A stretch of DNA of 64,000 nt from Chrysomallon squamiferum. Its lineage: Eukaryota > Animalia > Mollusca. The position numbers were made by a program, and so were the translations under genes. Location of the stretch: the NCBI GenBank assembly GCA_012295275.1, contig CM022666.1:10354001-10418000 (forward strand), read 5' to 3'. Of the stretch, positions 35,028-52,000 are shown piece by piece. Under the pieces are notes generated by a model. It was not told the DNA's origin. It saw only the letters and a list, made by a program, of their open reading frames with translations, and ran no database searches. The first letter of the stretch is position 1; each line of letters opens with the position of its first letter.

Positions 35028-37318
35028 GTAATAATAAATAAATAAACAAACAAACAAATAAGGGGATGAAAACATTTACGATATCGATGTAGCATTTATT
35101 ATGTGTACAAATAACTGGAGATTGTTTTCATGCACACAAGTCGACTGCCCAGAAAATATCACATACATAGCTAAATATGCTGGACCTAATCCAGTTTATA
35201 ATAATGTTTTAGATTAAAAATGACTTTCAAATGAACAAGACTAGCCAGATAATTATACTGGTTATAACAGATATACATGTATTGAGTGGGAACGGTTACA
35301 TCCTTCACGCTGCCCTCCGTGATGTTTATTATTATTATTATTACTTTTTTATTTATTTATTTATTTACAATTATTATTTATTATTATTATTATAATTATT
35401 ATTATTATTTTTTTTTTTTTTAAATGAAATTCAGTAAATCTTTAAACCACAATAGCACACCATCCCACGTTGTTAAATACTGGATTCTGTTCTTGTTAGC
35501 CACGTGGTTTTTAGTTTATATCAGCTAGAATATAAGGTCATCATCATCCATGCATGTTCTTCTATTTAATTTCGAACTTCATAAAACAATATGAAAAATT
35601 TATGAATTTTAGGGTATTTTCAAAAAGACTGAAACTGCTTGTGAAAATGGCATAATAAAAATTAATTTTGATGTGATATTAAAGTCTCGACGGTTGTGTG
35701 AATAACGTTTTATTATTATTATTCTTAATTCATAAACAAGTGTGGTAATACCTGCCAGCTATCGACACTTGTGATTTGCTTCAGGTAACAATAAGGAGAC
35801 CGTTTAAAAACCCCATCACGGAAAGACGAAATGGTATAAATATATATGACACCGGACCATTAAGAGGCAGCAGGAACATACAGATAAAATGGTTAATAAC
35901 TATAATTAAAATGTAAACCTTTGACGATTCAAGTTATTGTTTATATTATTTTTTGAAAAGTATACAACAACGAAGTCATTATAGTTAATAAATACTAGGG
36001 CGGTGCCATTTTTTGATAGGTGTATGTATCTGTGTATGTACTGACGCACACATACAAACAGTCACTGGACTGAAAATTACCAATGGGTGCACTGGCTGCA
36101 CTCGATCATTAATCTCTTGTGCATGGTCGCTGTTTTCTATCCATGGAGACACGGCCTACTCTCTTTTACACAGGAGCAACAAACAGAACATATTAAATAT
36201 GAACAGTCTATAATTGAGTGACTGTATGATATTTTGTTACATATATTTCCTTAATATATATTCTTAATAATAACAATAAATAAATAAATGAAATGCAATA
36301 GCATTTGTTAACAAATACTAAACAGTCTCAACACTTATTTATAAAACAGTTGCACTGACTCTTTCTGGACGAAGACCATGAAGTTGTACTGTTGTGTATA
36401 CTTATCCTGACTAATTCTGCAATGGATATATTTATTTTCTTATTAATTTCCGCTGTTACACTTCTGTTTGTCAAAAATCATTTTGAAACATCATGCTGAA
36501 TTAGAATAATCAAATTAACAAACACATAGGAAAATACAGGTCAGTTACAACAGTAAGAGTTAAAACAAATAATATTCATCACAGATAATCGAACTTACTG
36601 GAATACTAACAATTAAGCTAGTAACAAAATCAATACTAAAAATAATCATTATAGTTATCTTTCTCAGTCATTATACATATTCAGCAATTTATTGTAGGTT
36701 TTTTCAAAGTCATGATTAAATAAGATTATTTTCAACTGTAACATTATAAAAACAAGGATACAAAACTGAATTATTATTTCATAGGTCGTCAGATTATCAA
36801 TAAATAGTTTAATAGTTTTTAAAATAAAAAAAAAAATAAAATAAAAAATAAAAATAAAATGTCAGGCAAAGATCCAAGGTTCTTGGAAGCCATTTCCACA
36901 TTATTTTAATAATATCCATTTAACAGTCAAAACGTTTTCAATGGTTATTCTTGAAAAAGTTATCAGCCTTGAGAGTCTACAATTATTGAAATTTACCAGT
37001 CCTGAAAATTGTAAACTTGCAAAATGTCCAGGAATGTGGCTGGTCAATCCAAACTTAATTTTGTTTAAAATAAAGCCATGTTATATGAGTTGAGTTCAAT
37101 AAAATACAGTGTTATACTGAAAATTATTCTTTATCAAAATATATAACAGTTCCCAGTGAAATGACAGATTTCCTTCAAATGAGAACAAAGTGTCACTGTC
37201 ATAACAAAAACTGCACATGATAAAAATCAACAATTTGGTGTGATTAACCAAAAAACTAAATCACAGGAAAACATGACCTCTGAGCAGGAAATTTTGAAAA
37301 TAAATGTAAATAAATGCT

Positions 37319-39997
37319 TCAAAAGTTAGTTTGAAACATGTCAAACAAGAAATTTATGTCTTCTACATCATTTATCCCAGGTAGCTCTGAACACTTTTTT
37401 AAGTGCAATCCATGTATCTTATCATATTTGATGAAATAACCTAAAATAAAAAAATAAACCAAAATTTCACACAGAAATGAACTATGACATCTTGAAATAT
37501 AAATTCAAACAAAATATTCCCAACAACTTTGATTTTGAAGAATCTTAAAACTGAATTCATTTTCTCTAGGCAAACTGCTATTTTCTGTTAAAAATTACAC
37601 TATTTATTTCAACTTTTTTCATGCATTTTGGATATTTTGTGGACCCTATAATTCTAAATTAATATACATTAGTGCATACATACATACATTGTCTGTTTCC
37701 AGACTGTTGAAATAATTACCTGAAAGCAGAAATGATTCTAAACACACATAATTGTCAACTGGATGAATGTGAAAGTGTCGTAAATCTGGCTTGTTTATCC
37801 TTGTATGTTCCTACAGAAAATAATATTTAAGTGTTATGTATTATTGCTTACATGTATGTGCATTTATACATGAATTATAATTTTTTTATATAATGATGAT
37901 AATTTGTATATATCTTTCAGTAAATACCTAAAATAAGATAAATACTTAAAATACCTATAAGATAAAATTAACATTAGCATTTATTCACAAACATTTAGCT
38001 CTGAGGCCTTGTCAGTTCTGCCCTTTAGAAGACAGGTTATATGAAATAGAAAACTGCCTCTCTTTCTACTTTTGCCCTGCCCTTTTTCAGTGAAAAACAC
38101 TATATATATATATATAGATATATCAATCCTTTAATGTTAAAAAGATCACATATGATATAAACAAATACATATGAATTAACTAACTTATAAAAGTGTGAAG
38201 TTATAAGAAAATAAACACATACATCTGAGAAATATAATTTGCCATTCAAGTTTGCAGTCAGGTATGTCCCAGATAGATGGTCTTGAAGGCAACAAATGAA
38301 AACATTTTTCAGGTTTTTAGTAGACAAAGCCCTGAAGCTGTAACACATGAATAAAACTGTAAAAGAAAAAAATGCAATATGATTTCTGATATCTAAGACA
38401 GAACCACAACATAAATTGTTATAATGCTACAATACTTCAGTTTTTATGCTTTTGTTTTTGAGTATTTTTTATCTTTATATTTCTATACATAACATATCTG
38501 ATAATTTCAATGCTTGTATTTTATTAGTAGAAAGAAACAATTTCGATTCATACAGAGATATGTGAAGAAAAAAATAAAGAAAACAAAATGACTTAACAGA
38601 TAGAAAAGTACTGGTCACTATGCTCTCAGTTAATCAAAATCTTTAAAAAATAAGACTGCATTATAAAAATTAAATATCAGCCTCTGTGCATCCTTACAAG
38701 CGTGTTAATTCAGTTTCATATTTTAGTATTTGAAAATATTGCCAAAAGAAATATATATTAAATATAATTCAGCTAAATATACAATATGTTTTTTGCCTAT
38801 TCATTTGTAACACAATAAGCATATTTTAATAATCAACAATTACCTTTGTCATTTTTGCAATAAAATGGAAGACAAAACACATTTTGAAGAATTAAAAAAT
38901 TACAGTATACCACATAGACAGGGGAGAGTTTGTGAAAATGTAATATAACATACACACATGTATGATCTATGTAACATAGCTACACAGACACTCAACTATA
39001 CACTATTACATTGTATTGTTACTATTATGAAAGCATCTCACATTTCTCCTTTATTGAAAAGTCCAGTTCGTCTTCCATAATAGCCAGCTGCATGTCAGAT
39101 TTTGTCAAAAAACACCCTGACATGGCTGCATGTCGAATAAAAACATTCTTTTCACCGATAAGCTGGATATCAGCTAACTTGTCTTTCTTCTTTTGTTTGA
39201 TGAATTCAGCACAAATACTGAATGTTGTGACTGAGGGGAAAAAAAGGAAAATATATCTAACAATATACTGAAATCTCTTTTAACTTAAGGACCTTGTAAA
39301 TAATTAGTTCAATTGACTTTATTATGTGTTTTTCATGAATTTATTGTTATCATTTCTTGAAATTAATGTGACTGTTATTAAATCTCAACTATATACTTTG
39401 TCTATAATGAGGAAATCTGCTTATGAATTAGCAGCAGTTATACAAACCTTTTCAGCAAGCACACAGTCTTTGTGTGTTACCAGCAAGCTGCAGATCACTT
39501 TTCTATTATAATAAAATTCAGATCTAGAAATTTCACAGCATTCAATTTTGAGAAATAAATTGATTATGATTGATAAAGAATGCAAAATGAAATGTTTAAT
39601 TTAATATGTTAATTATGTATAATTACACTGGCATATACAGATAAATAAAAAGGGAACCTGCAGTGGCCATCAAACAGGTTTCTTTTATATAATATTTCAT
39701 ATATGTATGCTCCGTGTTGAAAAGCCATTTATCACAAACACTGGTAAATGTATCCTGGGAAAAAACCTGTAACAATCCTATGATATACCTCTGTTTGCAT
39801 TTACTTAGTTAATTCACTTCTGCAATCATAATTTTTTTTCTGAATGGAATTAGATATAAACTATGTTTAAACTATGTTTAGCTGCATAAATGTTATAATT
39901 AATCTTTCTCTGCTGTACTCATCAATTCCTGATGAAGGGAGATAATCACATTTCTCAAAATTTTAGAAATAAACTTACAAATTCTAGGATTCTCCAT
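37319..39997 (-). CDS. Leaderless beta-trefoil protein, putative interleukin-1-family-like cytokine, 184 aa
   Basis: Exons (-): 39997-39979 (part of exon 40059-39979), 39230-39042, 38356-38223, 37810-37720, 37440-37319; all GT-AG with pyrimidine-rich acceptors, 555 nt, open throughout. Protein MENPRIFTTFSICAEFIKQKKKDKLADIQLIGEKNVFIRHAAMSGCFLTKSDMQLAIMEDELDFSIKEKFLFMCYSFRALSTKNLKNVFICCLQDHLSGTYLTANLNGKLYFSDEHTRINKPDLRHFHIHPVDNYVCLESFLLSGYFIKYDKIHGLHLKKCSELPGINDVEDINFLFDMFQTNF*. It has a three-fold repeat (SGCFL/SGTYL/SGYFI). The gene structure is well supported; the start codon and the family assignment are inferred. Confidence 0.75.
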
Positions 39998-42900
39998 CTG
40001 TATTTGTCTTATTACTGTTTGCAACAAGCCAAAACCATTGGTTACAATTTTGTCTTTGCCTGAAATATAATAAACAAATACATTTTTAAAAATAACATTA
40101 AAATTTCAAATAGTTTCAAGCTTCTTTACATTTTGTAATTTCTTATTAAATAAAATAGCTGTAATGTCACAAAGACATCATGAAAAATGAAAGTTGTTTC
40201 TTAATACAACTAATAAAACACATGTTTAACAATTGATTATTTTCTCTAAACAAAATAACACATTAAAATAGCTTTAAAAAAACCTCACCATTTCTAAAAA
40301 ATTTAAATACATTTTTATCTACCTGCTTCAAGAATGACACGAGTTTCTATTACTCTATAAACCTATACTGAGGTTATTTAAAAAATCTAAACAGCTACTT
40401 CAGCTTAGTCATTGCTAAAACTTTATGTTTGAAATAACAAAGCCAATGCCTGTAAGAATCACATTCGATTGTAGTTTTAAATTAAGTAATATATAATGTG
40501 GAACAAAGCAATTTTGTTTAATGTTGTCACCTTCATTAGAATGGTTGTCAGATTGTTTCAAAACAGTAGCACTTTGTTAGGAAAAAATTATTACATATTT
40601 TCAAAAATATCAATATGGAAGTTTAATGGAGTAAATGTTTTTACATTCTTTTTAATATTAAATTACGTAATCATTATATTATTAAAAATATGAATATGCA
40701 TTTCTATAAAAATAATTACTGTTTTCAATTGAACCATATTAGATCATTTATAATCAAATTAGAATTACACTAACTAAACATATTTATAGTGTTTTCTTTG
40801 TTTAATGTCAGTAATAATTCAGTAACAGTGGTGATCTAGATTGACATAAATACATCATTTTACCGTATAGTCAACAATTAGCAATTTATTTACTTGTAAT
40901 TACTGGGTGACCCTGTTGCTTATTTTTGTGGGATACATTATTTAAATTATTATTGCTGTAAAAAAAAAATATTATTAATAATAATAAATAAAACAAATTT
41001 TAATAAATTATATTGTTTTAAAAATAACTTTAACATACTTTCTTTACTTCAATCTTTTTATATCATTTTAATCTGTGCCAATAAGGAATAATTACAAAAT
41101 AAATAATAAAATAATAATACAGAATTTTGTTATATTCGACGTTCCAAATACTGAACTGATGAAATTATCAATTATTGGTAGAATTTACAGTCTGAAATCA
41201 TTTCAGAAGTAGGTGGCTTACCGCTCAAATAGACACGTGTCACAAATGCTCTTTTTAAATGTTTTAAATTCGATAATATGCTTACTCGCTTATGTCTATA
41301 CCTACTATATAATTACCTGGACTACATCGATATAGTAATTACATCATTTATCACAATTAACACAATGACTGAATGAGTTGTGTTGTGTTTCCCCCTACAT
41401 CATGTCTAAAAATACCAGCTTTGTTTGCCCTACTTTTTATGCGAGTCAGTGGCAAACTGCATCCCACGGGGCTTTCTGAATGGCACGCCTAATAGCATAG
41501 GGTAACTTGACTCTTTTTTAAATGAGGCAAAAACTGATGTTTTTGAAGTCAGTTATGTCTTTCCGCAACGAAGTCGGTAGAATTCAAACGGTAACCGTAG
41601 ACATAAAGTAAAAACGAATTCATTCAGTAAACTCTAAAATGGTTTAACTACACACCAGCACGTATACACAAACACCACAAAGAAATTAGCAAAACACGCT
41701 TATTAACTTAGTAAACTTTTATTTTTCGTAAATGTTTACTGTCAAATAATAATAATAATAATAATTAAAAAAAAAAAAAAAAAAATTAAAAATATATAAC
41801 GTTTTCTTAAATGTTAAGAGGAGGGCAGTTATCCAGTTTCCTATTTCCGTACTCCTAATCTTTGGTCAGTTTCTTCAAATCTGAAATGACAGTAAGGCTT
41901 ACGTAAGAGTATGATAATCAGCATCCGCTTTTTATATCCTTAAAGCAACCATCACTGTTTAAAGTATGTCGTATTTCTCGGGAAACTAAATCTATTCAGA
42001 AACGTTTTAGAGAGTAGTAGATCGAGCTGAAATAAAAGCGATGTTACATTACTGTACTTGAAAATAGAACGTATTGTTTGTTTCTTTTTCTTCTTATGTT
42101 GTTGTTATTGTTTAATAGTTGTAATTATATTTTGTTTTATTTTGTTTCGTTTATTTATTTACTTATTTATTTTCTGTTTATTATTATTATGTTTTAAACC
42201 TTCACAAATCCTGAAATTGTTCATAAATATTTATTATTTTCTTAGATATTTGGGAAAACAGCACTTTTATTAGCTCTTCACATTTGATCAAAATAAGGTA
42301 TAGCTTCATTATTGTTATGTCGTGGAAAAGGTGATTTCTAAGCTGTTGATTACCAACAACAACAAAACAATAAAATAACATTCATTGGTGTAGTTTTAAT
42401 ACATCTTTCTAATACCATATAGGCAGGACTGGTAGGTGTAGGTGAGATATAGTCAGTATTTTCCATTCCAACCACTGTCCATGACTAATTTATCAAAAGC
42501 TGTGAAATAACATTAATAAATGATGTGTACTTTAACAGTTGAAATAAATTGGTTATTCTTTGAAGCTAATCAGTCTGAGCTTGGGCTATACAAAAATTAG
42601 ATTAGTACAAAATAATCAGTGCAACTTAACATTTGTCTGAAATGCTTCAGAAGCATCAAAAACTTTAATATTAATAGGTGTTTTGGGGAGAGGTTTTTTT
42701 GTTTATTGTTTATTTATGTATCATTAGGAAACAATAAATTTACCAAGTCATTGCTGATTAAAATAGAGAAAAAAGAAATATTTCACATAAATTATTTATT
42801 ATTTCTCATGCAGTAAATTTTTCATTAGTGAGCCTTCAGTGGATACGATAATACAACACTTTATCCAACAATAAATAAATAAACAAACAGACAAATAATA

Positions 42901-43750
42901 ATAATTATACTGTGCCAAATAAGGTTAGCAATTACGTACAAGGTGTGAAATACAGACAACCTGAATGGATGTTCAGTTTATTTGTACACATTATTTCATT
43001 GATACAACATTTCTGAATGTAACCGGCAGTAACACGTTGTCACGGTGTCAACGTCGTTACTTGAATGTCAACTGATGAAATGGAGGTGTACATCACCCAA
43101 GATGGTGAGAGAGGCTCAATAATGTGTGTGTGTATCAGCGGCATTGATAATACCATCGTCGTCTCATGCTTCTAATGAGAGTATTAATATCAGTAACTGC
43201 TTTCTATTCCCAGTTCGGAACAATTTAAAGGTCATGGACATTAAGGATATGAATATGGTTTTCGTGTACCATACGGCCCAGTAGGTCCACTGTATGCTCA
43301 ACTGAGGAAAAGTCAGGGGACTTTCAACACTTGGATGTGGTTCTGCTCAAGAAGATTAGCCTAATGGTAAATGATCTAGCGTTGTCATATTGAAACAGAA
43401 CGTCAGGTTGCTGCTGCAGGAATGGAATAACCATTGGTGTAATACTCTCGTCGCAGTAACGTTGATCAGTCATGTTTCCGTGAATGAAAACGAGATCCGT
43501 TTTACCGTCACCATGAATGCCGGCCCAGGCCATAACGCTGCCACCGCCGTATCGGTCATCATATCGTTCTCCCCGTCGCCTCCATACATGACATGACGCC
43601 TACGATCTTCAAACTGAACATACGGCTTAGTCCCATATGGTAGAAAGGCTAAATGTGGTTCAGTGGTCTTATTGACATGCTTGGTTTTACCTCAGTCATT
43701 ATAATGAACTGCTCCAGATTATTTGGAAAGCGATTATTATTGTATAAATA

Positions 43751-44418
43751 CAGTAATATCTCGCTTAACGATATCACGCTTTAACAATCTTTCTTCTTTA
43801 CAAATTATATAAATAGAAATTTAATTTAATAGTTAATTGCTCGAAATAAATGATACAAATGTATACAATGCATGTTTTTTAAGTCCGTTTTCTTTAATTT
43901 TTCGTTCATTCACGAGCTTCTCTCAGCTGTGTTGATCAGTTGACACGTCATACGTGCACCTGATATTCTGATTCTCTTTTGTTTTCTGCTTCGATTTAGA
44001 CTTAAACTCGTTTGTAATTTATTCTTCCAATATCTCAAAACGAATAACAGTAAACCGGCAAATGCTCATGATAAAAGAAACGGAAGACAATAACTTTAAA
44101 AACAAAATACATTATCTTAAATGAAACCAAACCCACAATGAGTGGCATATAATTATTTCTTAATGTATTTGTATACATTGATTTGTAAATGATTTACTGT
44201 TTACTTAATATCTACAATCTATTAAATCATTTATGTCTAAACTGCCGTTTTATTTCTCCATATTTTACCTCTTTTTTTTTTATGTCAGATCTCATCAGCG
44301 AGAAAGTAACTACTGCTTTTAACCTTAATTCTATGTAAATTAGTCTCCCGCTTAACGATACCTCACTTCACTATTGGAAATTTGGAACCAATTACATCTT
44401 TAATCTGAGGTATTATTG
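43751..44418. mobile_element. Tigger/pogo-like MITE nested in the 43624-45467 element
   Basis: TA-flanked. Left end CAGTAATATCTCGCTTAACGAT; the right end reverse-complements to CAATAATACCTCAGATTAAAGAT. An internal copy of CGCTTAACGATA lies at about 44349. Confidence 0.65.
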
Positions 44419-45024
44419 TAGTATGTATGCAAATATGACATAAATATCGCATAAAGTATGCAAACATAACAAATATCGAAATAATCTATGTATCGAATGT
44501 AGTGACTATAAATAATTAAAAAAGAAGGTATTCATCTAAAAGTATTCCCAATGATTTGGTCCTTCGTATAAACTTTTTCAGTCATAGCCAAAGTATTTGT
44601 AGGTCATAATATCTTTAGTGTACATACTATTAATATACTATGTCACATATATTGTATGATATGTGCGCAATCCGAATATGTATGTGTGCATAACGTAAAT
44701 ATGATCAGTAACAGATGTTTAAGTTGAATATGGTTGAATTCGAACAGTTAATGATAGATGTAACGTTCACATATTCTATTTACTGAATATAAGTAAATTA
44801 CTCGTATGTAAAATATGTTAGTTATTTATAATATTTTTGTCGTTTTCTTTTACAGAAGCAAGCCATAAGCATTAATAAAAACACATCGTGCCGCTTTTTA
44901 CTTTTCTTTTCTTTATTTATTATTTTTTTTAATAGATAGATGAAATTGATGTAAAATTGTTTATTATTGGTCGCTTGTTTTGTAACGGAAAGGAAATGTT
45001 TATGAATTAGAAATGACCACCTTA

Positions 45025-45073
<49 letters not shown>

Positions 45074-45111
45074 GTAACAGTAATTATAATAAGAAGAATA
45101 AGAAGAATAAC

Positions 45112-45151
<40 letters not shown>

Positions 45152-45230
45152 GTAATAATATTATAATAATAATAATGTTGATGATGATAATTATGATGAT
45201 GATAATGAGAAGGAGGAAGATGATGAAATA
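45025..45230. repeat. Compound (AAT)n/(GAT)n trinucleotide repeat
   Basis: Read directly; it produces the spurious poly-Asn ORF 45013-45231. Confidence 0.92.
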
Positions 45231-46323
45231 ATGAAAAAGTAACAAATCAACAACAAATGACCAGTGAACGCTTATTCTGCTTTCGGTTGATGTTACATAA
45301 TCGATTTAGGAACAATGTGCTCCGCCTCTGAATGTTAGAAAGAAACCAAGATGTATGTACAGGCCAAGTTCATTATATACAGAGGTAATCAGGTATTGCG
45401 GTAAACCAGCTTTTTCTACGAAATGGGAATTATACGAACTGGGAATTCTACCAAATGGGAAGACACCGAACATACACCTGAATTCGTCTGTGAATAATGT
45501 CTGATTCCATTGTCTGCGTCGCCAGTGTTGGTGTATTCTGGCCAATCTCAGACGTTCCTAAATGTGACGCGCTGTCCGTGAAACAGCTACAACAGGGCGA
45601 CATGCCTGTAATCCAGCAGCATGGAAACAGTTACGGACAGTTTGAGCATGAATTTCAGAGGTTTCCTGCAAAGTACGGGCTAAACGTGGAGCACTTTCGA
45701 ACCTGTGACGTGCACTAAATACCTATCTTCCCTTGCAGTAGTTAATGGTGGTCGACCAGAAAGGTGTCGATCTCGCACTTGCCCAGTTTGGTGTACGCAT
45801 TGCCGAGTCGTGATATGGTACTGTCATGAACACTAAAATACTGAGCGACGTCGTGTACGCTTAACGCCGGCCCGTTGCTTCAAGACGTTGATTTTCCGTT
45901 AAGCCATGACGGCGACCCGTTATAAACAGGATAAATTCTAACTTTTGTTTTTGAAAATGTGATTGCAATAGACCCGTATTGCACGCGCTTCTGCGACAGT
46001 ACGAGCGCACCGCGTTGCGCGTGCAGTACGGATAGCGGCGTGCGATATGACAAATGGTGTTCTTTTAATTACCCAAAGCGACATAACATACGCAAATAAC
46101 ATACTACCAAGCTTTATCATTTTATTTTAATTTATCTGGAAGTAAAAGTCAGTTACAAAAACTTGCTAAACTTTTTTGGTTTAGTATAATTTATTATGCT
46201 AATGATGTTTTTTCTCTCTCTTCCCAAGTTTACTCATACATCTAGATACAATTATTAAGAGACATAAGGTAATACTCACAAAATGCAACTTAATCTAAGT
46301 ACAAGAAAAAAAAAAAAAAAAAA

Positions 46324-46363
<40 letters not shown>

Positions 46364-46858
46364 CCTAATAAAATAAAATACATTTTATTTATATAATCAT
46401 ATAACATCTGTTGAAAAGCTAGCAATATGTTTAGAAAATATAAAATTGTTCCACTAATCTTGTATACAATTAATAGTATGTTACAAGTTTTACTAAATGA
46501 ACTGCAAACCTATTAGCCATGGAATACGTACATAAATAGTTGAGTAATACTATGAAAAGTTTAAATAATACATTTTTTTCTTACTCTGAAAAGTAGTCAA
46601 ATAATGTATATTGTTTTTATACATTTCACAAAAAATGTACATCTGAATACTTTATAAAAAAAAATCTGATACTGCCACATTAAAATGTTTATTTTTTAAA
46701 CACTATTTCTTACAATGGAATTAACTGATGAAATTAAAATTTCAACTTAAAGCATCATGAGAGAGAGAGAAAAATTAAGTTATTAACATTATTTAATGAA
46801 ATTTAAAAAACAAATATTGTTCACAATTATTGTTAGTTTTAAGTAGCAAATCAATATA

Positions 46859-47522
46859 CAGTGGTACCTTGACTTACGAGTTTAATTCGTACCGTGACTA
46901 AACTTGTATCTCAATATACTCGTATATCAAATCAATTTTCCAAATTGAAAATAACTGAAATACCATTAATTCGTTCCAGCCTCCTAAAAACCACCACAAG
47001 TTTTTATAACGTATTTTAAATAAGAAAAATGTATATATAAATGAAAAATATTGTATAAAAACAAAAATAAAAGAGAATGTAAAGAAATAAATTGATTTTG
47101 TAAAATGTATAGAGTTATGGTTTCTCTCTCTTTTTATGGACAGAGGTCCACAGCTTATTTTAACGCCTTTAGGTGGAGTTGTAGACTTTATCGACACCTT
47201 CGGCTTCATTATGGTACATATCGCAAAAGTACTACGCTCGTACTGCCTAGCCATGTTGACTATATCATAGTATGTGCACACCTCGCTCATGTTTTTCTAT
47301 GATTTCATGCTGTAATTCAGTGAACATCATCCGCTTCTTCTCAGCACTCACTTTCTTGGGATCCATGGAAATTTGGCAAAATACTGCACAACACAACAGA
47401 GATGCTTCCACTGCGAGATAACCACGTGAACCAAACGAGTGAGACGCGGGATGCTGACCGGGCGGTTGTTCGTAACTCGAAAAGCTCGTAAGTTGGAATA
47501 ATCTTAACTCGAGATACCACTG
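46859..47522 (-). mobile_element. Tigger/pogo-type non-autonomous DNA transposon (internally deleted)
   Basis: TA-flanked TIRs CAGTGGTACCTTGACTTACGA / reverse complement CAGTGGTATCTCGAGTTAAGA. Frameshifted transposase N-terminus on the minus strand from 47366: MDPKKVSAEKKRMMFTELQHEIIEKHERGV... then MARQYERSTFAICTIMKPKVSIK. Confidence 0.9.
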
Positions 47523-49060
47523 TATATATAATAAAGTTTTTATAAAATATTTTATACTGTTGACACGTAACAATACTAACATCATGTATCAACTCGACTT
47601 TTTTTAAACGAATCGATTTGAAATAGCCTGGGTACAGTTAAAAGATTAAACCATTAATATATTATATTAAAGCATTTTGAATTTACTAAATGTATAAAAA
47701 CATTTAGATAACGAACATTCCTTTCATTAAAAGTCCCAATTTTTGCCTAATTATTTCTTAGCCGAACCTATGTAATGATTTAAAGGTTAAAGGTCACGTG
47801 AATTACATTTTTAAAATACTATGCGGAAAACGATTTAGTGAATCTTCTAAAAATAAACAAGCCTGTCATCACTGCCAAACACAGCGAACAGGTAAAAATC
47901 ATAGCCTTTCTAAGCGTCTTTTTAACATATCTTAAGGTTTAACAGTAACAGGTATCCTACGCAAGGTGTAGACTAGTGTTCACAGGTTTGTATTCGTATA
48001 AATCTTAATAACATATTCACAGTATTAATGGCATGGAACTGTCTTCAGCTAGTTCCGTCATGATTTAGAATATTGTGTTAATGTTTATAAATAATTATTA
48101 TTTTGGTGGTTTATAGCTTAGAGGTCGTAATATGAAATGCAACGTTCCATCCCACCATGCTGGCTCAGTGGCTGTATAAACAACCGGAAATAACCTTAGG
48201 CAAATGATATGTCGTCTGTTATTAATATCATTTCAGTCAATTATTTCAGATATTATTATTATTATTATTATTTATAATCCCATGAATGGAAAACGTTTGT
48301 AAAATAAAAAAAAATATAATGTCACCAGAAAAATAAAAAATATATAATTTTTATTTCCAGCTTACTAATGGCAAATGATAGTGAATTAATTAAGCATTAT
48401 TTATCACATACATTTTATGAAATACTGTAATCAAATTGATTATACCATTGACATAACTATTATTTTCTCTCATTCTCAGATCATGTTAGTCATGGTACTG
48501 AAAATGTTCAGTGAGATTTATACTGATAAAAAAGAAAAACTTTTAAAATACCAAAGAACTTATTTTCTGGCGTTGACTTTTCTAGCATATGAAACATTTT
48601 TGTAATTCACAATATTTTTACAAAAGTACAAAATACCTTTCATGTGTGTTTTAAAATAGGACAACATGTACCAAAATCTTTGATATATCATTTGCAGATA
48701 TTTGAGACACTGTGGTTAGTGGGAATTTATTAATTTTGTTATTTTATACATACATATTTAATTTATATTATTTTTGTTTTGTTTGCAGTACATATGCAAA
48801 TTTTATTAGGCTAATTGTGTTCATTATTAAAAAAAACATACAAAAAATAACTTATACTAATTAGGTATCAACATCATAGAGACAAGTGGTGACAGATGAC
48901 AGTGATAAATCAGTGAAAAATGTAATAATAAACAGTGACAAAAAATTATGGCAAATGGATATGGAAGATTATGACAGGTCACAAAACTTAATATTAGTGA
49001 CAAGGTAGTGTAAATGGTGACACAAGATAACTGACAAGTGGTGGCACAAAATAATGCTTG

Positions 49061-52000
49061 ATGGCTGGCCGTAACAAATATTCACCAAGTGGAGGCAAAG
49101 CTGTTTTTCGGACTATTAATCAGACTTATGCTCAACAAGGGTAAGCATTTTCCAGGTTACTTTGTTTTACACTTACTTACCAGTCATGTGTAGGTATGAC
49201 AGTTTTCAAGAGAAGCTATTGTATTTTTACAAAATATGTTGTTTTTTTTTTTTGTTTTTTTTCATTAGGGCAATTTTAAAGATATTTACTTATTATTGCT
49301 TAATAATTTATAATTAATTATTATTGTTATTGTTGCATATTTTTATATTTCCTTACAGAGAATTTTTTTTTTTTTTCTTGTGTTTGAATTATGAAATTTC
49401 AATATTCTGGATTATCAAATATTGTCTGAAAGTTAAACACAAAGTTCAGTAAAAGGCACACATTTTAAACTTTTAAAAAACATATACAACATAAATAACA
49501 AATAATCATTTAAAAAATTATAATAACAAAGATGGAAGAGACTAAGTGATGTGTATTTGTTGCTGTTTTTTCCTATAGGTCAAGTAAACTTGGTGTTGAC
49601 AAAATACCAATTACAAGATGTGGAATATTTTCACTTTCCACCCTGTCATGGCTATCTCCCATTATGTGGTCCCTCTATAGAAGAGGAGTAGGGTCTGTTT
49701 TATGTCTAACATGGTGGGAAGAAGATACTACACAATATAATGTTGATAGGTATGTTTATTTACTGATAGAGAGTATAATGCTGATAAATTGATACTAACA
49801 TAAAATAGAATGTGTTTTTCTAATGACATTTTCAGACTCAGTGTCTACTGGGAGAAAGAATTAGAGTCAGAGGGAACAGAAAGATCATCGTTTGGAAAAG
49901 CCGTTTACCAGACTTTCAGAAAAAGGCTGATCTGTTCAGAAGTTATTGTTTTATTAGCAGTAGCATTTTCTTTTGTTGGATCGGTAAGTTAATGCTTTTT
50001 GTAATTATAGTTTTTATCTATTTATACCTATTCCCAGCAGACTCATATGCACTTGCACACTCACTCACAATCATTGTTTGTTGGTAATAAAGAAGAAAAA
50101 CTGATGTTTCCACTATAAGAACAACTCTTTTTAGTTAACAGAAAGATATCTTTCAATAGTTAGACACTCATTTAGTAAAGCAGTGCTCTATTGCAGATCT
50201 CTAAATCTCCTATTTACACACTGGCATTTGTTAATCTTGTGTTACATTTAAAATGTGAATGGAAGAGATACATTGGTTTATGAATTTGTTAATTTGTTGT
50301 CATGAATTTGATTTTAAACCAGGCTATAATTCTCCGACTGCTGCTGGACCATATCCTGGAATCTAGTGCTGGAGTTGTCGAGGGAGCAGTCATTGTTCTT
50401 GGATTGATTCTCAGTGAACTTTGTCGATGTCTTTGCTTTTCTTTGGCATGGTGCCTCAACTACTGGAATGGTAAGTCTTTAAATGGTGAGGGGTAGAAGG
50501 AAAAATATATTAAATATGAATTTTGTGTTATAATTAAAATAATAATAATAATAATAAACAATTATAACAATAATTAAAAAAATAAAAATAATAACATCAA
50601 CACAGAATTTGCAATAATTGTTTATTTTGAGCATTGTTGAACGGTACATAATTTATTATTTGTTGGTCATTTTTCAGGTGTATTAAAAAAACACAACAAC
50701 ACTCCTTTGTATATCTAATTTCATCTTTGTATAATTTAGAGATTTAGGGTAGTAGTTCTAAATAAAGCCAGTGGAAAAAAAATGAATGTTGATTGTACAG
50801 TTTCAAATCATAAAAGAGCTTGAATCTAAATCGGATTTTAATTTAATAGTTTTAATAAATTTTATGTTTATTACAAACATTGCGTTGAACACAGAATATA
50901 AATTGAGTACAAATCCTGAATTAATCAAATAATTTGAGTTTGGTGCAGCTAAGTTAAATTAGACAGTAGTGTTTGTACTGAGTTGTTGTTAATGCATAAT
51001 TTAACACAAATTTTCAGTTGTACAAATGTCTGTTATGACACAACAAGTGAACTTAATACAGATTTGGTATAACTGAATCAGTTTTAGACACTGGTTTTTT
51101 GAATTGTAAAATGTCTGTGCTTAATACAGATACTTTAACCTGGTTCCCACACATCTCAGTTGTTTTCAAAATAAATGTTTATTATCTTCATTTGTGTTCA
51201 GTGTAGCAGTAAGTTGTTATATTTGCATCAGTGGTCTTAGCTGTGTGATGCAGCCTCATATTTATTGATCTGTGTTAACACTTTTCTGTTTTAAACCATA
51301 TTTGTACAGAAGTTTGGCTTCATAGGGTTTTTTTCTTATAGTAGTTAACAGACTGATCTCTATCAAATGTAGATAGATTGTTTCTAGTGTTTCTCTTGTG
51401 TGTGGATACTGACCATTTGTTCTGTTTGTTTGTGTGTGTCTGTGCATTCATACATACATTCATTGATCATTCTGTCCATTAAATTTATAAAGTGATTGTC
51501 AAACTGTTGATAAGTAATGTCAGTGAAAACTTTACTACATGGGTAATTACAGGCAAAACATTTGCTAACTGTTTTGGAAGACATGTAGGATTTGTATTAT
51601 CTTAATAAGATAATTATTATTTCCAGAAATCAATAAAAATAATAATTACATTGTTTCATATATTGACCTATTTCAGGCATCAAGGTACGAGGAGCTGTTA
51701 TGGGTTTGCTGTATAAGAAAATACTCAAACTGCGCAGTCTGAAGGACAAGAAGATTGGAGAGGTTCATTTTATCACTATCTTTATTTATAAAATATTTTA
51801 GTATAAAAATATTAGATACAGTTTTGGGGTCATGTTTTTCCCTACATTACCTCGTCTTTTTTAATACTGCAGCTAAAGTAATAGACAGCCAAGTCACTGT
51901 TAAGTTACAGTATTACAACAATCATTAGATCAAGTAAATACAAATTTTTATATATAAATTTAAATATAAAAATAGTGATTATAATTAATTATTTTTCAGC

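Follow-up and report, generated by a model that had tools for sequence, protein, structure and literature searches.

The window analysed here is the whole 64,000-nt stretch of Chrysomallon squamiferum contig CM022666.1, and has a GC content of about 29%; the mean for Gigantopelta aegis is given as 37% in the available part of PMC7895826. On its minus strand lies a five-exon open reading frame (39997-39979, 39230-39042, 38356-38223, 37810-37720 and 37440-37319). All four introns begin with GT and end with AG, with phases of 1, 1, 0 and 1 in order, and the joined exons make up 555 nt that encode 184 amino acids and a stop codon. The five in-phase exons and the 184-residue frame described in the initial annotation are thus confirmed. 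The parts of this candidate gene are listed below.

39979..40059, minus strand: exon 1, 81 nt counted from its acceptor (40059), with 19 coding nt if the ATG at 39997 is the start
39042..39230, minus strand: exon 2, 189 nt, closing at a phase-1 intron; a short N-terminal part with a lysine cluster, then putative trefoil strands 1-3
39178..39198, minus strand: lysine cluster, residues 18-24; possible nuclear-localisation-like patch, judged from the sequence
38223..38356, minus strand: exon 3, 134 nt, between a phase-1 and a phase-0 intron; putative strands 4-7
37720..37810, minus strand: exon 4, 91 nt; putative strands 8-9, with an F-x-hydrophobic strand and the LES motif
37733..37741, minus strand: LES motif, residues 138-140; corresponds to the (F/L)ES of strand 9 in the IL-1 family (strand predicted)
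37319..37440, minus strand: exon 5, 122 nt including the stop codon; putative strands 10-12
36436..37318, minus strand: possible 3' UTR; hexamers that could direct polyadenylation at 36910, 36813, 36693 and 36436

The surrounding genes seen in the window, where linkage to GCC2, ESD and an IL-1R-like gene was looked at, encode myosin light chains (two genes) and an ABC transporter. The two myosin essential light chain paralogues face each other at 23.7-24.9 kb (plus strand) and 28.9-31.2 kb (minus strand). The minus-strand copy and a protein of Gigantopelta aegis agree at 134 of 135 aligned residues, a match that places the host with the neomphalid vent gastropods of peltospirid type. The minus-strand copy is 84-87% identical to Haliotis proteins over its long exon, and the plus-strand copy is about 68-71% identical to that same Gigantopelta aegis match. 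Between 49.5 and 64 kb on the plus strand lies a multi-exon ABC transporter that appears ABCC/MRP-like by eye, with Pfam ABC_tran matched on two exons. No paralogue of the candidate gene was found within the 64-kb window. For the recently described invertebrate IL-1 family treated below, the available part of PMC13736523 reports no microsynteny among lophotrochozoans.

By a rough home-made scoring of the region 36000-49500, which contains 642 AG and 760 GT sites, the five acceptors of the model fall within the top 0.2-7% of the former and the four donors within the top 0.9-9% of the latter. GC makes up 34% of exons 2 to 5 and 26% of the introns (Fisher p=2e-4), and first-position GC is 0.38 in the candidate gene versus 0.49-0.57 in the neighbouring genes. 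Downstream of the stop codon there is no AU-rich enrichment (ATTTA at 5.9 per kb versus 6.6 in introns).

The exon junctions, for which the initial annotation had looked to RNA, were compared with contigs of four sequencing runs, three of them RNA runs, which are small metatranscriptomes of depth about 3. No joint in these contigs fits an intron of the model, a result that neither confirms nor excludes splicing. The RNA contigs that reach exons (X1, 39141-39374; X3, 37266-37524) pass unspliced from exon into intron at a depth of about 3, and so represent DNA or pre-mRNA; run X4 gave a short repeat piece only. A piece of intron 3 (38002-38046) is a small dispersed repeat, and contigs from other places match there in all four runs.

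With 39997 taken as the start codon, an 11-residue hydropathy profile sampled every five residues gave no signal-peptide-like stretch, in keeping with the claim that the protein has no hydrophobic leader. Hydropathy peaks at 1.5 near residues 6-16, just ahead of the lysine cluster, and the putative trefoil is preceded by two aspartates only, Asp23 and Asp27. The initial annotation had also described a three-fold internal repeat. All six of the motifs that it quoted are in place, but the repeat itself is weak by sequence: with 2000 shuffles per pair and windows chosen by the analyst, only repeat 1 against repeat 2 exceeds the shuffles (p=0.018), and the comparisons of 1 with 3 (p=0.31) and 2 with 3 (p=0.48) do not.

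The LES motif stands 47 residues from the C-terminus and is followed by G145, Y146, F147 and I148. These residues align with the vertebrate motif FES-PG-WF (PMC12108812, available part), with only the Pro lost. The spacing from LES to G145-I148 equals that of the PROSITE IL-1 signature, [FC]-x-S-[ASLV]-x(2)-P-x(2)-[FYLIV]-[LI]-[SCA]-T-x(7)-[LIVM] (PMC4880838, available part), which is given without the Pro in the accessible text of PMC7144542. The full signature is absent, since four of its nine positions agree at the LES register and the best agreement anywhere in the protein is five.

An (F/L)ES motif is also used to recognise ‘IL-1anc’, the invertebrate IL-1 family described in 2025-2026 (PMC13736523 and the preprint PMC12338702, each as far as available). 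Judged by eye, (F/L)ES-x6 followed by an aromatic/aliphatic-hydrophobic pair occurs in 9/9 lophotrochozoan (bivalve and brachiopod) rows of the Table S2 portion available from PMC13736523. The same pattern arose in 1513 of 200,000 shuffles of the candidate protein, and together with the flanking D..F and a terminal F-x-F in 9 of 200,000, although the patterns were drawn up after the sequences had been viewed and these rates flatter the match. The signature Pro, whose absence the initial annotation had noted, is likewise mostly missing in bivalve IL-1anc proteins.

Flanked by a phase-1 and a phase-0 intron, exon 3 measures 134 nt, and the coding part 3' of it 213 nt. In human IL1B the corresponding exon is 131 nt and the remainder 213 nt, the central intron positions being compared with those of the human gene only. 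FGF cores also have introns of phases 1 and 0, and FGF genes are marked by a middle exon of 104 nt and by a C-x-F-x-E core motif. The candidate shows neither of these two marks, its middle exon being 134 nt. Its intron phases 1, 1, 0 are those of the last three introns of vertebrate IL-1beta genes (PMC4880838, available part), plus one extra phase-1 intron placed 7 residues past the L of LES. According to the accessible part of PMC13736523, the coding region of an IL-1anc trefoil is split into three to five exons, and two central introns are conserved in phase; the putative trefoil of the candidate occupies four exons, and its central introns are of phase 1 and phase 0.

Searches for relatives used single exons or a stacked exon alignment as queries, that is 30-62 residues of a fast-evolving protein, and the following results are accordingly weak negatives of little power. 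Pfam gave nothing relevant for the five exon pieces (one chance match at E 0.084; no IL1 and no FGF match). A HMMER search of 1.84 billion representatives returned no relative with exon 2 alone as query. Word searches passed 0/67 and 0/484 candidates, none of 598 pattern matches in metagenome contigs was confirmed, and no relative was found in the annotated confamilial snail. Searches of PDB sequences gave chance matches only; among them an IL-22 entry at E 0.57, a helical cytokine, was taken as chance. The ESM Atlas gave no usable match for exon 3, and for exon 2 it gave no more than matches below 0.9 to bacterial Pterin_4a clusters, which were rejected. An AlphaFold model of exon 3 alone has four strands (mean pLDDT 70.5, pTM 0.34), which in this model would fit trefoil strands 4-7 as expected. 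A structure search with the model matched no trefoil and, for a single exon, neither supports nor excludes that fold. The low-confidence model of exon 2 alone has three central strands.

Taken together, the five exons make up an intact frame, and we consider it likely that its 184-residue product is a beta-trefoil of the IL-1 type and acts as a leaderless immune cytokine. An IL-1-like protein is the best reading, since LES and its spacing point the same way as the phases of the introns and the likeness by eye to bivalve IL-1anc proteins. The initial reading as an IL-1-like cytokine is thus supported in part, and none of the tools used assigned the fold or the family.

Two other accounts of the same exons deserve weighing. 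A different beta-trefoil, such as an intracellular FGF-like protein, a fascin- or AbfB-like protein or a mytilectin-like lectin, would resemble IL-1 through the shared fold only. The pattern hydrophobic-x-S...G-aromatic recurs in many trefoils, phases 1 and 0 are typical of FGF genes too, leaderless trefoil lectins (mytilectins) exist in molluscs, and the lack of a tool-based tie to IL-1 also leaves room for such a protein. We nevertheless regard this account as quite unlikely, given that LES falls in the third repeat with IL-1 spacing, that the middle exon differs in length from that of FGF genes and the FGF core motif is lacking, and that lectin and fascin trefoils usually have strong repeats and a Pfam match where the candidate has weak repeats and none. 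That the exons line up by chance, or belong to a silent pseudogene, seems barely credible, even with no spliced RNA contig, no relative (the annotated confamilial snail included) and a first-position GC below that of the neighbours. Four introns with high-ranking sites, 184 codons without a stop, the raised exon GC and IL-1-like motifs that run across exon borders all argue for a gene, and the RNA runs supplied only shallow metatranscriptome contigs.

The 5' end bears on a third account. The frame of exon 1 is open from the acceptor at 40059 to the first in-frame ATG at 39997. This acceptor ranks among the best 1.9% of AG sites, and the AG directly before the ATG scores very poorly. Given the open frame upstream of the ATG and the acceptor at 40059, at least one further exon should lie 5', most simply a first exon that is non-coding. 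An out-of-frame ATG at 40038 (minus strand) opens an 8-codon frame (40038-40012) that stops before the main ATG and, judging from the sequence, could dampen translation if that part is 5' UTR. A GC-richer stretch at 41.2-41.95 kb (minus strand) has TATA-like boxes (around 41937 and around 41440), a one-mismatch kappaB-like site (41468-41477) and two strong donors (41317, 41222); such an arrangement might represent a promoter and non-coding first exon. Sites of the kappaB-like type are not enriched in the window (24 observed versus 20.7 expected). Further upstream of the gene, decayed transposon-like stretches occupy 43.0-43.6, 45.3-45.9 and 46.9-47.6 kb. They appear Tc1-like and pogo/Tigger-like by eye, that at 46.9-47.6 kb has apparent terminal inverted repeats, and four ORFs within these stretches were assigned to no Pfam family.

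The 184-codon frame could then be only the 3' part of an IL-1anc-type gene, with pro-domain or PDZ exons joined at the acceptor at 40059 to encode a cleavable precursor. Such a precursor would account for an ATG that sits within an 81-nt phase-1/phase-1 exon whose frame is open from the acceptor, and a PDZ domain is present in most IL-1anc proteins and in all 7 bivalve rows of the available part of Table S2 (PMC13736523). A scan of 40120-49500 gave 18 phase-1 donors scoring at least 2.5. Apart from those in the transposon-like stretch (46.9-47.6 kb) or at the beginning of the adjacent gene, none of them has an in-frame ATG, and none has a good acceptor outside that transposon-like stretch, although the scan may miss weak exons because genuine donors of the model score down to 0.3. 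A crude pattern scan found no PDZ-like exon upstream of the candidate, its four matches in the window all lying on the opposite strand, with the same reservation for weak exons. With no plausible coding exon at these donors, we judge the longer precursor unlikely.

An IL-1-type protein of 184 residues would, by analogy with IL-1anc and IL-1alpha, be made in the cytosol and perhaps enter the nucleus by way of its lysine cluster. It might be produced in haemocytes or epithelia and rise on microbial contact, as its analogues suggest. Little or no processing would be needed, as the trefoil would have no more than about 30 residues in front of it. The protein could leave the cell through gasdermin pores or on cell damage, and would then be expected to bind an Ig-TIR (IL-1R-like) receptor and activate NF-kappaB/AP-1. 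The available part of PMC13736523 reports that IL-1anc genes are induced in lamprey, sea urchin and anemone, and that one of the urchin proteins is cleaved by caspase; its authors state that pro-inflammatory function and receptor binding of IL-1anc have not been directly demonstrated. The small single-domain form should be easy to express, and suits experiments on the binding of invertebrate IL-1 to Ig-TIR receptors.

Some species of the host family are chemosymbiotic (PMC7895826, available part), and a role in host-symbiont control is therefore testable. One speculative extension, which we hold to be a long shot, is that a minimal peltospirid IL-1 lacking PDZ and pro-domain, and beyond the reach of sequence search, acts as a ready-made alarmin or a receptor antagonist that sets tolerance of the bacterial endosymbionts of the oesophageal gland. 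If true, an IL-1 cytokine would govern a chemosynthetic symbiosis.

The initial annotation had implied that IL-1 outside vertebrates would be new. This is not supported, as the IL-1anc family, with molluscan and PDZ-less members, is in print (PMC13736523), and the picture of IL-1 origins is unchanged for the same reason. In the available part of its Table S2, the bivalve proteins and those of a brachiopod all carry PDZ, the bivalves in 7/7 rows. The same source, as far as available, counts a PDZ-less subset within the family, including SparIL-1.2, PclaIL-1.2/1.3, PvanIL-1.2 and AjapIL-1.1. No gastropod genome appears in the Table S1 material available from PMC13736523, and the word ‘gastropod’ is absent from the portions of its text and supplements examined; Haliotis, Gigantopelta and Lottia have no mentions in the available content of supplementary file 4. 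No paper on gastropod IL-1 was among the matches listed in our literature searches. The candidate is likely a gastropod member of the IL-1anc kind, apparently without PDZ or pro-domain, from a class unsampled in that study. If it is an IL-1 member, it extends the invertebrate family to gastropods and adds an independent loss of PDZ in molluscs, where 7/7 listed proteins carry this domain.

Compared with vertebrate IL-1beta, IL-36 and IL-1RA, the candidate is alike in being leaderless (as is IL-1beta), in a FES-PG-WF-like motif with conservative changes, and in the intron phases 1, 1, 0. It differs in agreeing with only 4/9 PROSITE positions, in its extra phase-1 intron, in lacking a long pro-domain as modelled here, and in giving no Pfam IL1 match on single exons. 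The bivalve and brachiopod IL-1anc proteins (PmaxIL-1.1-1.3, CvirIL-1.1-1.2, MtroIL-1.1-1.2 and LanaIL-1.1-1.2), compared by eye in the accessible material, share with it (F/L)ES and the downstream spacing, the D..F strand before (F/L)ES, the terminal aromatic strand and a signature Pro that is mostly absent. The bivalve proteins in that material possess PDZ, whereas no PDZ-like exon was found upstream of the candidate. The PDZ-less IL-1anc proteins of crayfish (PclaIL-1.2/1.3), shrimp (PvanIL-1.2) and crinoid (AjapIL-1.1), as far as they are documented in the available part of the source and compared by eye only, are alike in being short and mostly trefoil, of similar size and with no signal peptide listed, and differ in phylum. 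In the same material the crustacean members of this subset have no clear (F/L)ES, in contrast to the candidate, which carries LES.
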